Made by a program: the position numbers and the translations under genes. This document shows positions 1,590-4,003 of a stretch of DNA of 4,837 bases, one piece after another (position 1 is the first letter of the stretch; each line of letters opens with the position of its first letter). The DNA comes from a virus (Duplodnaviria > Heunggongvirae > Uroviricota > Caudoviricetes), in IMG/VR virus record IMGVR_UViG_2663762648_000008; one strand, given 5' to 3'. The notes below the pieces were generated by a model. The model saw only the letters and a program-made list of their open reading frames with translations, made no database searches and was not told the origin of the DNA.

Positions 1590-1617
1590 TTGATTCGCGC
1601 ACCTTCGCAGATAGAAT
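1590..1617 (+). promoter_or_regulatory. Putative sigma70 promoter for the downstream rem-position gene
   Basis: -35 TTGATT (1590-1595), 16-bp spacer, -10 TAGAAT (1612-1617). Located just after the terminator and ~80 nt upstream of ATG 1699. Motif match by eye only. Confidence 0.4.
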
Positions 1618-1651
1618 CGACTCACTTAAGTAGCGCGCAGGGAGAAGAGGG

Positions 1652-1696
1652 ATGGACCCCGAACAGGGGAGAGCTATTTATCTGGAAGGATTCTGA
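1652..1696 (+). CDS. Putative 14-codon upstream/leader ORF (MDPEQGRAIYLEGF) in the 5' UTR of the 1699 gene
   Basis: GGAG 1641-1644 is 7 nt upstream of ATG 1652. Stop TGA 1694-1696 ends 2 nt before the main ATG 1699, and the ORF covers the main gene's SD (GGAAGGA 1684-1690). It is conserved in copy B (2541-2588). Confidence 0.3.
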   Translation: MDPEQGRAIYLEGF

Positions 1697-1698
1697 AG

Positions 1699-1986
1699 AT
1701 GAAAATCGAAGAATTGCGTGAAATTTTTAGTGAAAATGGCCTCTATGCTGTGCGCGTTGAGAATGGAGCGATTGTCAGCCATTGCCGCATTAGATGTTTG
1801 CAATCTCAACAAAGGAAGAGCGGTGCTGTGTTATTTTATTTTTGTAATGGACTTCTGACGGACGGTTTTATTTTGCGTGAGGACGAATTTGTCACATCAT
1901 TACGGGTTTTGAAAGAGATTGGTTTTAAGGCTGGTTTTCTGCTTTTGCTGAAGAATAAACTCATCTACAATCTTGAGCAGGATTGA
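1699..1986 (+). CDS. Hypothetical protein, 95 aa, in the position between hok and the DUF968 gene (rem-like position in Qin-type prophages)
   Basis: ORF track 1699..1986; SD AGGA 1687-1690 with 8-nt spacer. The first 29 codons are near-identical to the ORF at 2588; the remainder is unique and AT-rich. Confidence 0.5.
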   Translation: MKIEELREIFSENGLYAVRVENGAIVSHCRIRCLQSQQRKSGAVLFYFCNGLLTDGFILREDEFVTSLRVLKEIGFKAGFLLLLKNKLIYNLEQD

Positions 1987-2475: not shown

Positions 2476-2505
2476 TTGAAGTTTTAGATGGTGCCGGAAT
2501 AGAAT
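2476..2505 (+). promoter_or_regulatory. Putative sigma70 promoter (copy B)
   Basis: -35 TTGAAG (2476-2481), 18-bp spacer, -10 TAGAAT (2500-2505). The -10 is conserved with copy A while the -35 region has diverged. Confidence 0.4.
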
Positions 2506-2540
2506 CAAAAATACTTAAGTAGCGCGCAGGGAGAAGAGGG

Positions 2541-2588
2541 ATGGACCCCGAACAGGGGAGTGCTATTTATCTGGAAGGATTCTGTTGA
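2541..2588 (+). CDS. Putative 15-codon upstream/leader ORF (MDPEQGSAIYLEGFC), copy B
   Basis: Same SD and ATG context as copy A. Stop TGA 2586-2588 overlaps the main ATG 2588-2590 (TGATG). Confidence 0.3.
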   Translation: MDPEQGSAIYLEGFC

Positions 2589-2869
2589 TGAAAATCGAAG
2601 AATTACGTGAAATTTTTAGTGAAGATGGCCTCTATACTGTGCGCGTTGAGAATGGCGCTATTGTCAGCCACTGCCTTCCAGACTACACAATTCTGATAAT
2701 TCAGCCGTCTTTGCCAGCAGGCACGGGCGGCGCTCTCACGCATTTAAATCTGATTGGTACCAGCATCCCCCATGCACTGAAGAACAGGCCGAATGGCTCA
2801 TTCAGTGTTACCGCAGGCGCGGATGCGAGGTTAAAAAAGCCCTTAGCCTCGACTACCGTCACTGGATAA
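2588..2869 (+). CDS. Hypothetical protein, 93 aa, paralogous over its first 29 residues to the 1699 ORF; C-terminal part looks low-complexity and may not be genuine
   Basis: The track ORF 2585..2869 starts at TTG; ATG 2588 with SD AGGA 2576-2579 is the more likely start. N-terminus MKIEELREIFSEDGLYTVRVENGAIVSHC is shared with copy A, but the tail (…PSLPAGTGGALTHLNLIGTSIPHALKNRPNGSFSVTAGADARL...) is G/T/S/A/P-rich. Confidence 0.45.
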   Translation: MKIEELREIFSEDGLYTVRVENGAIVSHCLPDYTILIIQPSLPAGTGGALTHLNLIGTSIPHALKNRPNGSFSVTAGADARLKKPLASTTVTG

Positions 2870-2944: not shown

Positions 2945-4003
2945 GTGCGGGTATTACTTCGACCTGTTCTGGTACCGGAACTCGGTCTGGTTATCGTTAA
3001 GCCAGGCCGTGAATCAATGTCAGCATTCCATAACGGCAGAATACTGGTGGAGCCGGAACCAAAAAGCATGCGTAATCTGCCGTCCGGGGTCGTTCCTGCC
3101 GCTCGCCAGCCGCTGGTGGAAGACAAAACATTGCTGCCGTTTTTCAGTAACGCACGGGTGATTCGTGCTGCTGGTGGTGCTGGTGCATTGTCTGACTGGC
3201 TGTTGCGCCATATTAAATCCTGCCAGTGGCCACACGGCGATTATCATCACAGCGAAACCGTCATTCACCGTTATGGTACCGGCGCAATGGTGTTGTGCTG
3301 GCACTGCGACAACCAGCTGCGTGACCAGACATCCGAATCACTCGAGCAACTTGCTCATCAAAACCTGTCAGCATGGATGATTGACGTCATCGGTCACGCA
3401 ATAAGCGGTACGCAGGAGCGTGAATTATCTCTGGCTGAATTATCCTGGTGGGCGGTCCGCAATCAGGTGGCGGACGCGCTACCGGAAGCGGTATTACGTC
3501 GTTCGCTGGGGTTGCGTGCGGAAAAAATTCGCTCTGTGTACAGTGAAAGCGACATCATACCGGGAGAGCAGACAGCCACCAGCATACTGAAGCAGCGCAC
3601 AAAAAATATTGCGTTACTGCCTCACGTCCACCAGCAACAGAACCCACCACAGGAAAAGACGGTGGTCAGCATTGCCGTTGATCCGGAGTCACCGGCTCAG
3701 TATCTCCAGCGCCAGAAACCACAACGGGAAGAGATGCCTGTATACACGCGTTGGGTAAAAACGCAGAAATGCATGACGTGCGGTAATCAGGCAGATGATC
3801 CGCATCACATCATTGGTCATGGACTGGGAGGGATGGGAACAAAGGCTGATGATTTGTTTGTTATTCCGTTATGCCGTAAATGCCGTAACGAACTACATGC
3901 CGGAGTAAAAGATTTTGAAGAGAAACACGGCAGTCAGCTGTTGTTGCTGATTCGTTTTTTAATGCACGCGAGAAATTCGGGTGTTCTGAAGTGGAAAGCA
4001 TAA
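2945..4003 (+). CDS. DUF968/YdfU-like prophage protein, 352 aa, with a C-terminal HNH-like Cys/His motif
   Basis: Long ORF with protein-like composition; GGAGG 2936-2940 upstream of GTG 2945 (short 4-nt spacer, so the start is uncertain). C-terminal region has C-x2-C ... HH ... C-x2-C ... H (CMTCGNQADDPHHIIGHGLGG...CRKCRNELH). The stop TAA 4001-4003 is immediately followed by the rusA ATG. Confidence 0.8.
   Translation: MRVLLRPVLVPELGLVIVKPGRESMSAFHNGRILVEPEPKSMRNLPSGVVPAARQPLVEDKTLLPFFSNARVIRAAGGAGALSDWLLRHIKSCQWPHGDYHHSETVIHRYGTGAMVLCWHCDNQLRDQTSESLEQLAHQNLSAWMIDVIGHAISGTQERELSLAELSWWAVRNQVADALPEAVLRRSLGLRAEKIRSVYSESDIIPGEQTATSILKQRTKNIALLPHVHQQQNPPQEKTVVSIAVDPESPAQYLQRQKPQREEMPVYTRWVKTQKCMTCGNQADDPHHIIGHGLGGMGTKADDLFVIPLCRKCRNELHAGVKDFEEKHGSQLLLLIRFLMHARNSGVLKWKA

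Follow-up and report, generated by a model that had tools for sequence, protein, structure and literature searches.

A conserved 5' leader with a variable upstream reading frame at prophage genes of the Rem family of putative antirepressors

The two leader copies and the gene they precede

The window, that is, the whole 4,837-nucleotide stretch of tailed-virus DNA analysed here (Caudoviricetes; IMG/VR record IMGVR_UViG_2663762648_000008), appears to contain, in duplicate, the promoter and 5' leader that serve a Rem-family antirepressor gene. The rem-like gene of copy A (1699..1986, + strand) encodes a 95-aa protein, 68% identical over 80 aa to Rem (b1561) of E. coli K-12 (E = 2e-34), and homologues of this protein carry PF27490 in precomputed Pfam annotation. 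Rem is, to our knowledge, the only known antirepressor of a DicA-type repressor (Qin-like prophages). Discovered by its similarity to GfoA, K-12 Rem relieves DicA repression of dicBp in experiments and works from its own native RBS (PMC10448788). Mitomycin C does not induce K-12 dicBp, and the condition that induces Rem is stated as unknown by its discoverers (PMC10448788). The sole match to a LexA box (CTGT-N8-ACAG) at up to one mismatch in the window lies at 3534, inside a DUF968 gene, with none at either promoter, which fits this account of K-12 Rem (PMC10448788). The window gene is best described as a Rem-family member and a putative antirepressor, the activity being known from K-12 Rem alone.

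A consensus scan places a predicted sigma-70 promoter for this gene at 1590..1617 (+ strand), composed of a -35 element TTGATT (1590-1595), a 16-nt spacer and a -10 element TAGAAT (1612-1617). From its position, transcription is predicted to start near 1624, which is also the first base of BLAST homology with other prophages, and the predicted 5' untranslated leader accordingly comprises 75 nt (1624..1698, + strand). A purine-rich core, GCGCGCAGGGAGAAGAGGGATGG (1633..1655, + strand), holds an SD-like GGGAG (1640-1644) and an upstream ATG (1652-1654). This ATG opens a short upstream ORF (uORF; 1652..1696, + strand) of 14 sense codons, MDPEQGRAIYLEGF, read directly from the sequence and closed by TGA at 1694-1696; two nucleotides (AG) separate the stop from the main ATG at 1699. 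Starting 5 nt after the upstream ATG, a GC hairpin (1657..1669, + strand) is formed by CCCC (1657-1660), the loop GAACA and GGGG (1666-1669). The SD of the rem-like gene, AAGGA (1686..1690, + strand), lies 8 nt ahead of ATG 1699 and within uORF codons 12-13; it is nearly invariant among rem-type leaders.

The second copy repeats this arrangement on the same strand. Its promoter (2476..2505, + strand) has a -35 element TTGAAG, an 18-nt spacer and a -10 element TAGAAT at 2500-2505; its leader (2513..2587, + strand) includes the core at 2522-2544 and the hairpin at 2546-2558. The copy B uORF, MDPEQGSAIYLEGFC (2541..2588, + strand), has 15 sense codons, and its TGA (2586-2588) overlaps the main ATG (2588-2590) as TGATG. 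The reading frame that follows (2588..2869, + strand) retains homology to rem only to about codon 29, with unrelated sequence beyond; its translation departs after AIVSHC, and 2675 is the last base of the direct repeat D1. Strain TUM10008 carries an equivalent stretch whose annotation is that of an incomplete CDS, and the hok gene of copy B is truncated at its 5' end. By these sequence features copy B is a decayed paralogue, and its leader is the common EDL933-type allele.

The anatomy given in the preliminary description withstood re-examination. A short ORF with its own SD is present in both copies, GGGAG lying 7 nt 5' of the ATG in each, and the stop-start geometry (a 2-nt gap in copy A, a TGATG overlap in copy B, the main SD inside the copy A uORF) is as first reported. 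The claimed leader conservation of about 97% comes to 96%, 3 of 75 positions differing between 1624-1698 and 2513-2587, and the promoters have indeed diverged, the -35 to -10 sequences of the two copies being unrelated. That both copies keep the uORF is likewise true as an observation; it does not count as independent evidence, because copy B is a decayed paralogue with a common allele.

Variation of the upstream frame among homologous leaders

Of 5426 complete E. coli genomes, 3038 carry the leader, with 3624 copies in all. In 809 records the best match reaches at least 99% identity to the window allele, and in 2090 records it falls at 80-90%; among the matches listed, all rows of the 80-90% class stand at 89.4%, which is the value of the K-12 allele, MG1655 and BL21 included. 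The sequences upstream of 211 homologous leaders form 13 clusters that have in common only a TTGnnn -35 element and a TAGAAT -10 element, the latter invariant and the former 16 or 18 nt upstream of it. The context of copy B is the commonest, with 129 of the 211 instances. Finding one leader behind 13 different upstream clusters upholds the earlier proposal that selection acts on the leader itself, and constraint on the leader is supported by this comparison.

Searches further afield added little. A Klebsiella phage homologue has an unrelated upstream region and is therefore uninformative on the leader, while a divergent Rem relative (P0054) gave no confirmed loci among viral contigs. A scan of genome contigs with the 14-mer GTAGCGCGCAGGGA gave nothing beyond chance hits in unrelated bacteria, and a full-text literature search for the uORF peptide and the core sequence found no paper.

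Neither the length nor the frame of the uORF is conserved in the homologues. Among 185 leaders it spans 3, 4, 8, 11, 12, 14, 15, 18 or 22-25 codons or, in some, continues in frame into rem. By geometry these comprise 98 stop-start arrangements, 60 stops more than 5 nt upstream, 17 in-frame fusions and 10 out-of-frame overlaps; as the 185-211 instances include many close relatives, locus counts do not equal independent events, and at least 8 independent frame changes are estimated. In a sample of 96 leaders seeded by DNA pattern, and hence unbiased as to rem type, the uORF has 14-15 codons in 28 and 3-4 codons in 47. The K-12 MG1655 version reads ATG GTC CCT TAA (MVP and a stop), three codons ending 31 nt before rem, and the same MVP version occurs in the isolated temperate phages mEp460_ev081, HannyBb and PhiR42_1. 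Other breaks consist of TAG or TGA after 3-4 codons, of a +1 G by which the uORF becomes fused to rem, and of a -1 variant that extends it to 22-25 codons overlapping rem out of frame. Where the uORF is intact, substitutions are mostly non-synonymous (E4K, Q5K, R7S/G/K, A8V, L11P), and the upstream SD is itself polymorphic among lineages (GGGAG, GGGAT, GGGAC).

An open frame at this place is no more than chance would give, because 1652-1696 is open in all three frames and, in shuffles at the base composition of the leader, the 13 sense codons after the ATG remain open in 45% of cases (P = 0.45). The attenuation that had been suggested can also be set aside. A terminator scan detected no intrinsic terminator at 1624-1698 or 2513-2587, the CCCC/GGGG hairpin having no U-tract after it; since no terminator lies between the transcription start and rem, attenuation is excluded.

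These results bear directly on the initial interpretation, according to which a conserved leader-peptide ORF is under selection and termination at the rem start couples translation or drives attenuation. The window alleles do have what such an ORF requires, namely a good SD (GGGAG, spaced by 7 nt), an AUG, and a stop that overlaps the rem AUG or lies 2 nt from it; the geometry recurs in the 98 leaders counted above, and the Rac-SA53 leader retains a 14-codon frame, MAPIKGNAIYLEGF, with a TAATG junction despite a diverged 5' half. There is also a precedent in Gifsy-1 orf45-anrP, where coupling was shown by mutation (PMC4825925). Against this, a disrupted frame is seen in about half of the leaders sampled and in the majority of E. 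coli genomes, K-12 and the three phages among them, while the nucleotide sequence is otherwise retained, which is the very pattern that the preliminary description had named as pointing away from a peptide. The range of lengths, from 3 to 25 codons or a rem fusion, together with the mostly non-synonymous substitutions, the polymorphic SD and the chance-level openness, argues against constraint on the peptide. The stop-start geometry, kept in 28 leaders of the unbiased sample and lost in K-12 and the three phages, seems no better preserved. As a conserved feature, the leader peptide is on this comparative evidence largely refuted, and we consider the model quite unlikely; a tempting wrong lead is thereby removed. 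Coupling by termination and reinitiation is physically possible for the two window alleles, as neither a conserved nor a required property.

Conservation of the core, the hairpin and the early rem codons

The 23-nt core, GCGCGCAGGGAnAAGAnGGATGG, is present in every leader found and is polymorphic at two positions only, GGGA[G/T/C] and AGA[G/T/A]GG; its GGATGG occurs in 185 of 185 instances recovered by a search that tolerated 5 mismatches. The core is kept even where the 3' half of the leader and the downstream gene differ, two unrelated 3' halves being represented, and it is invariant in the most diverged lineages (Rac-SA53, Rac 442/2 and the leaders of a 55-aa gene), in which flanking leader bases differ. 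The alternative downstream proteins of 55 and 57 aa gave no alignment with each other in BLASTP despite their likeness by eye.

The CCCC/GGGG hairpin is predicted in every fold, and its stem is able to form in all lineages. Its loop varies between 3 and 5 nt (GAACA, GAGCA, AAACA, GAAUA, GAGA, GAAA, UUAA, UAA, GAA, AUAA), and the stem changes solely from C to U in the 5' arm, where pairing with G would still be possible in + strand RNA. The fold energy of the leader as a whole is not unusual (z-scores -1.2 to +1.6 in six lineages); the leader is purine-rich and largely unstructured, with 6 GGA motifs where 2.9 are expected (P = 0.03).

Low divergence extends from just after the -10 element to rem codon 20. 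Over codons 2-20 synonymous sites are almost invariant while amino acids change, and mean synonymous diversity is 0.09 for these codons against 0.27 in the comparison (Mann-Whitney P = 2e-4, with codons taken as independent). Minimum-energy and consensus folds contain a hypothetical long-range helix in which the 5' core (1631-1649) would pair with a candidate 3' arm in rem codons 15-21 (1741..1759, + strand). This duplex exceeds shuffled sequences in strength in three rem-type lineages (P = 0.016, 0.026 and 0.005) and is absent in Rac-SA53 and in the leaders of the 55-aa gene. In a covariation analysis of the hairpin and the long-range helix, 98% of cells were paired, 0 pairs had changed on both sides and shuffles were indistinguishable, the sequences being too similar; both RNA structures are thus compatible with the data rather than proven. 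No sequence complementary to the core, and hence no antisense partner, was found on the leader strand in about 1.2 Mb of flanking prophage DNA. Taken together, the conservation signature points to an RNA on the + strand, because the stem is kept while the loop varies, the stem changes are C to U only and the synonymous sites are almost frozen.

Candidate modes of control and related systems

With little more than even confidence, we favour the view that the conserved block is a 5' leader through which rem translation is controlled at the RNA level and that the 14-15-codon ORF is its by-product. The conserved unit would consist of a strong-looking sigma-70 promoter, the 23-nt core near the transcript 5' end and a 4-bp GC hairpin just past the AUG. 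The leader being G/A-rich and stop-poor in all three frames, a frame opened by the AUG would tend to run on, which may account for the uORF. On the + strand RNA this module could act as a platform that sets the level of Rem translation, either through ribosome loading at the upstream SD and AUG or through a trans-acting factor binding the purine- and GGA-rich single strand, in rem-type genes possibly aided by base pairs between codons 15-21 and the 5' core. In the window alleles, ribosomes from the upstream AUG would end on or next to the rem start and could reinitiate there; such stop-start coupling may be specific to the window lineage and dispensable. With the SD-like tract and the ATG so strictly kept, upstream initiation could matter everywhere, even as a 3-codon mini-ORF, in which case "by-product" understates its role.

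The same invariant block could instead be read as DNA. A host or widely shared phage repressor bound at about +10 to +45 would block a promoter that is otherwise constitutive, leaving the ATG and the hairpin incidental. Such an operator would explain how an antirepressor with a strong-looking, conserved promoter stays silent in the lysogen, as it must; and since the spacer and upstream DNA vary by lineage, a shared operator would have to sit downstream of the -10 element, precisely where the invariant block is. Antirepressor promoters of Gifsy prophages are under a DNA-binding repressor, LexA (PMC3121763). The window promoters lack a LexA box, however, and dyad symmetry in the core is confined to GCGCGC, while the CTTAAG palindrome beside it is not conserved (TTTGAG, CTTAGT and CTTGAT are also seen). 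The CCCC and GGGG arms still pair at spacings of 3 to 5 nt, which suits an RNA hairpin and not half-sites, and the reduced divergence continues into the coding region over about 140 nt. An operator is for these reasons unlikely. Still less probable is an absence of dedicated regulation, in which a good promoter and ribosome-binding region would serve as a recombination joint of lambdoid mosaic modules and be homogenised by exchange. The block does lie exactly at a mosaic boundary, between 13 upstream clusters and two downstream leader/gene types; several C-terminal bodies share the first ~25 rem codons, and the two main clades differ at ~9-10 of 75 leader positions and ~7 of 60 in the first 20 codons (~12% each, counted from the alignment), the remainder of rem being visibly more divergent between them. 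Exchange should nevertheless lower synonymous and non-synonymous diversity alike, whereas only the former collapses in codons 2-20, and it would not predict a core that is invariant in the most diverged lineages while flanking leader bases differ.

Within the RNA-level reading, the identity of a trans-acting partner can be narrowed only speculatively. Host CsrA, bound to the core and to the rem SD (AAGGAUU), would tie prophage derepression to the Csr system. The six GGA motifs in 75 nt are in excess of expectation, as given above, and four of them are invariant across lineages (read by eye from the aligned leaders, with no computed count); the core segment AGAGGGAUGG agrees at 8 of 10 positions with the SELEX consensus ACARGGAUGU. 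The main SD is GGAU in nearly all leaders, most of those of the 55-aa gene included, and the leader is unstructured. This evidence is of motif level, and purine richness inflates GGA counts; moreover, in the predicted folds no GGA lies in the loop of a stable hairpin, and the SD of one leader type, AUAGGGUUUU, has no GGA. Control by CsrA in particular consequently seems improbable. In a broader form, the core and hairpin would be a sensor for some host factor controlling Rem translation, be it a small RNA of the host or, like CsrA, a protein that binds GGA or purine stretches, a suggestion that is doubtful though not negligible. If true, it would be the SOS-independent induction signal so far missing for prophages with a DicA-type, non-cleavable repressor, including some that are carried alongside Stx phages. 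A constitutive-looking promoter followed by an essentially invariant leader across many prophage lineages offers in any case a defined target in the search for the Rem signal.

Several familiar elements were considered for the leader and rejected. In classical attenuation systems (trp, his, pheA) a short ORF with its own SD also stands in the 5' leader; the leader analysed here has no terminator/antiterminator pair and no regulatory codon run, and the peptide is not conserved. The lambda boxB hairpin is GCCCU-GAAAA-AGGGC, and some alleles (CCCU-GAAA-AGGG, CCCU-GAGA-AGGG) resemble it, as does CCCC-GAACA-GGGG of the window. A lambda-type nut site was dismissed all the same, as a search upstream of the hairpin found no boxA-like sequence, the loops of many alleles are not GNRA-like (UUAA, UAA, AAACA, AUAA), and the hairpin lies downstream of a separate promoter in a nin-like region, which is not the position of a nut site. 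Agreement with an RfaH ops element is limited to GTAGCG; a sigma-dependent pause element, a Q-binding site and an intrinsic attenuator were dropped on reading the sequence, and a promoter scan found no antisense promoter inside rem.

The closest parallels come from Salmonella prophages. In the isrK-orf45-anrP locus of Gifsy-1 (Hershko-Shalev et al. 2016, PMC4825925), as in the window, a short uORF precedes a prophage antirepressor-like gene upstream of the Q antiterminator, the uORF stop and the AUG of that gene overlap, and the nucleotides are conserved while the peptide varies; regulation there is post-transcriptional. That uORF has 45 codons, however, and stands behind a terminated sRNA, IsrK, which originates at the same promoter and targets an alternative RNA structure in trans (PMC4825925), whereas in the window there is no sRNA or terminator between promoter and uORF, the 75-nt leader has little predicted structure and the stop-start overlap is not conserved. 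The dinI-gfoA/gftA modules of Gifsy prophages (Lemire et al. 2011, PMC3121763) share with the window a small antirepressor gene placed between replication genes and Q and expressed from its own promoter right after a terminator-like palindrome. Like tum of 186, they are controlled by LexA, whereas neither promoter of the window has a LexA box and the conserved element is downstream of the start site and not over the promoter. The Rfam isrK model (RF01394) scores 25.8 bits, against a gathering threshold of 50, at 2376-2457, which corresponds to the 3' end and terminator of hok, outside the leader.

Short coupled upstream ORFs are also found outside these prophages. The iraD gene is reportedly repressed by CsrA via such an ORF, idlP, and in the icd-ant system of P1 a short coupled ORF works with the C4 antisense RNA. 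In both, the uORF peptide is irrelevant, and a trans-acting factor represses translation of the uORF, which hands ribosomes downstream. These systems rely on a conserved stop-start junction, while leaders of the window type lose the junction in most lineages. The 3-codon, 15-codon, fused and out-of-frame versions constitute natural alleles that can serve as ready "mutants" for comparing Rem output.

Upstream frames in the window and in homologous leaders

The sequence statements of the preliminary description on both copies of the promoter-leader module are all correct. In copy A, an SD-like tract GGGAG (1640-1644) precedes an ATG at 1652 that opens 14 codons closed by TGA at 1694-1696, followed by AG and the rem-like ATG at 1699; in copy B, the ATG at 2541 opens 15 codons whose TGA (2586-2588) overlaps the ATG at 2588. 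The Shine-Dalgarno sequence of rem, AAGGA, sits within this upstream ORF (uORF). The two 75-nt leaders (1624-1698 and 2513-2587) differ at 3 of 75 positions, and the DNA from -35 to -10 is unrelated. As copy B is a decayed duplicate, the copies are not independent witnesses, and the open frame alone carries little weight, because purines make up 67% of the leader, none of the three frames is closed over 1652-1696, and in 45% of shuffles matched for composition the ATG is still followed by 13 sense codons.

The 95-aa protein encoded downstream (1699-1986) is 68% identical to K-12 Rem across 80 residues. When supplied ectopically, Rem counteracts the DicA repressor, which lifts dicBp expression 165-fold, and filaments cells by way of DicB and DicF, and K-12 Rem is active when made from its native ribosome-binding site (PMC10448788). 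The Rem-like product and the known role of Rem thus place the finding in a prophage antirepressor control region.

Homologous leaders were collected through Rem-like protein similarity in IMG/VR, through an exact leader 14-mer in IMG/VR, and from annotated E. coli genomes and phage records. Among 185 leaders the uORF takes three-codon forms (MVP, MAP or MEP, then a stop), a four-codon form (MDPE, then a stop), lengths of 8, 11, 12, 14-15 (window type) and 18 codons, and a 22-25-codon form that enters rem out of frame; an extra G in the G-run fuses it in frame to rem (MDPEQGECYLSGRILLMKIEEL...), and some gene annotations list these fusions as proteins of 98 and 101 aa. Seeding by protein skews the sample to leaders of the window type; in the sample seeded by DNA pattern, 14-15 codons occur in 28/96 leaders and 3-4 codons in 47/96. 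The leader is present in 3038 of 5426 complete E. coli genomes, with the best match to the window allele at 99% identity or more in 809 records and in the 80-90% band in 2090, where the matches listed all stand at 89.4%, the identity of the K-12 allele. The MG1655 leader reads ATG GTC CCT TAA, with its stop 31 nt 5' of rem, a three-codon type also found in the isolated temperate phages mEp460_ev081, HannyBb and PhiR42_1; in Stx2a/PPompW phages the uORF is of the 15-codon type, while Rac-SA53 encodes MAPIKGNAIYLEGF and Rac 442/2 MDPSGERY, each followed by a stop. Changes within intact 14-15-codon uORFs are mainly amino-acid replacements (E4K, Q5K, R7S/G/K, A8V, L11P).

The frame is therefore broken while the nucleotides are kept, an outcome that the preliminary description had itself set as a refutation of the peptide, and neither the conservation of the uORF nor the significance given to it is upheld. 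With frames this variable, and with the stop placed between -4 and +5 nt relative to the rem ATG in only 98/185 leaders and elsewhere in 87 (many sampled loci are close relatives, so that independent frame-changing events number at least 8, not 87), neither a leader peptide nor a stop-start junction appears to be the selected feature.

Constraint on the promoter, the leader and the start of rem

Among 211 instances, the DNA 5' of the -10 forms 13 clusters, which share two hexamers only, TTGnnn placed 16 or 18 nt 5' of an invariant TAGAAT; since these alone are common to the clusters, the comparison strongly supports a real sigma-70 promoter. Past the -10 follow 8-9 variable bases, CTTAAGTA (variable in some lineages), the invariant GCGCGCAGGGAnAAGAnGGATGG and a CCCC...GGGG hairpin. 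In 21/21 loci found with the protein of a different, 55-aa gene, the leader 5' half is shared and its 3' half is wholly different. The stem can form in all leaders, and its loop is free in sequence and in length (3 to 5 nt); within the stem, C to U changes in the 5' arm are the sole substitutions, with G pairing retained in the plus-strand RNA. This argues for selection on the stem and not on uORF codons 3-6; loop changes give rise to uORF stop codons (UAA, UAG, UGA) and frameshifts. The chief origin of frame changes is the G-run forming the hairpin 3' arm (1666-1669), with alleles GGGG, GGGGG, GGGGGG and GGGGAAG (1-nt loss), of which the +1 allele joins the upstream ATG to rem. In one IMG/VR sequence (UViG_2630968414_000003), AAGAGGGATGGCCCCCAT is tandemly duplicated in the leader, giving two upstream ATGs and two hairpin 5' arms.

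The low-divergence block runs past the rem ATG into coding sequence. Across 57 unique rem sequences, synonymous diversity is near zero in codons 2-20 (1702-1758) and ~0.5 from codon 21 onward (means of 0.09 for codons 1-25 vs 0.27 for codons 26-80; Mann-Whitney P = 2e-4, the codons being not fully independent), whereas non-synonymous diversity is similar along the whole length. Clades differ within codons 2-20 by K2N, E8K, S11C, N13D, A17T and R19C/H. Nearly frozen synonymous sites beside changing amino acids are the reverse of what ordinary coding constraint predicts. The first ~25 rem codons also recur in 57-aa proteins with another C-terminus.

In minimum-energy and consensus folds, 1631-1649, largely within the purine-rich core of the leader, pairs with rem codons 15-21 (1741-1759). 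This duplex exceeds dinucleotide shuffles in the window (P = 0.016), K-12 (P = 0.026) and Rac 442/2 (P = 0.005), and is no stronger than shuffles in Rac-SA53 and in leaders of the 55-aa gene. No covarying pairs were found, with counts indistinguishable from shuffles, as mean sequence identity is 90%; the leader alone does not exceed its shuffles in structure (z from -1.2 to +1.6). The small hairpin is well supported by its variation pattern, and the long-range helix is a hypothesis confined to rem-type genes.

Selection on the leader itself, also proposed earlier, is borne out by promoter hexamers, core and hairpin stem kept across lineages. Judged by this conservation, what is really kept is a promoter-plus-leader module belonging to the Rem antirepressor, a worthwhile lead to the signal for DicA-type prophage induction.

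Possible modes of action

We lean, at slightly better than even confidence, towards the leader being an RNA-level element that would set Rem translation, with the uORF a by-product of variable length. The transcript would present a largely single-stranded, purine- and GGA-rich platform (6 GGA motifs vs 2.9 expected, P = 0.03), with an SD-like tract and AUG and then the small hairpin, ahead of the rem ribosome-binding site, and would act by loading ribosomes or through a trans-acting repressor that binds it. The by-product view leaves the invariant SD-like tract and ATG unexplained, and initiation at the upstream ATG may be important even when only three codons follow. In window alleles, a ribosome that began at the upstream ATG would terminate at the start codon of rem and might initiate again there, a likeness to Gifsy-1 orf45-anrP, where stop-start coupling is proven and the nucleotide sequence, not the peptide, is conserved (PMC4825925); in the present leaders the junction is dispensable.

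A conserved coupling, as first proposed, is improbable, and control by CsrA specifically is equally so. A DNA operator 3' of the start site is unlikely too, if the foremost of the alternatives. Least probable is a recombination joint with function limited to promoter and ribosome-binding site.

Other candidates were rejected. The leader is without a terminator, which disposes of an intrinsic attenuator. For a nut site, boxA is absent and hairpin loops are not consistently GNRA-like, and no nearby antisense partner was found. An Rfam isrK match (2376-2457) is sub-threshold (25.8 bits vs 50, E = 0.013) and outside the leader, covering the copy B hok 3' hairpin and terminator just 5' of the rem promoter, and is probably a generic hairpin-plus-terminator resemblance; in Salmonella Gifsy-1, IsrK lies upstream of an antirepressor-like gene. 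No LexA box was found, in agreement with the published absence of mitomycin C induction (PMC10448788).

Surroundings of the module

The window is a lambdoid prophage segment between replication genes and Q. At its left edge an IS3-family transposase gene ends, followed by several small ORFs and a complete hok/sok type I toxin-antitoxin module (1124-1449), identified by Rfam sok (1124-1299; 112 bits vs a gathering score of 59) and a Hok/Gef domain, its hokD-like ORF (1294-1449) lying within a longer mok-like ORF (1237-1449). Copy A then runs from a terminator-like palindrome through promoter and leader to the 95-aa gene. Next, a DUF1367 gene (ATG 2025) contributes its first 75 codons, joined in frame to a 5'-truncated hok copy; 3' of this fusion, copy B repeats the terminator-promoter-leader arrangement, and its rem diverges past ~codon 29 into unrelated sequence (remnant 2588-2869), followed by DUF968/HNH, RusA and Q-like protein genes. 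The counterpart of the remnant in E. coli TUM10008 (L332 3523-3597) is annotated as an incomplete CDS, and a two-gene cassette (hypothetical protein and HTH protein) lies there between hokD and the rem remnant.

The DUF1367-hok fusion (2025-2367) is a recombination scar whose hok copy has lost sok, mok, its promoter and its first ~12 codons; 2248-2370 repeats 1330-1452 at 93% identity. Compared with its copy B equivalent (2436-2457), the copy A hok terminator (1529-1575) has an apparent ~19-nt loop insertion, CCCGCC...GGCGGG then a T-run, and the consensus terminator scan picked up the copy B one only. At 494-1002, adjacent ORFs of 55 and 114 aa with overlapping ATGA junctions, neither with a Pfam match, have in common a 29-nt repeat (587-615 and 790-818) coding a 10-residue stretch. 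Klebsiella phage ST405-OXA48phi1.2 carries a distant, unannotated Rem-like ORF of 60 aa (ATG 1159); 5' of it, at 840-1110, AAATAGGGGGTTG(C/A) occurs three times at intervals of ~120 nt, in each case with an AAATGTG-like sequence behind it, a candidate operator or promoter set unrelated to the E. coli leader.
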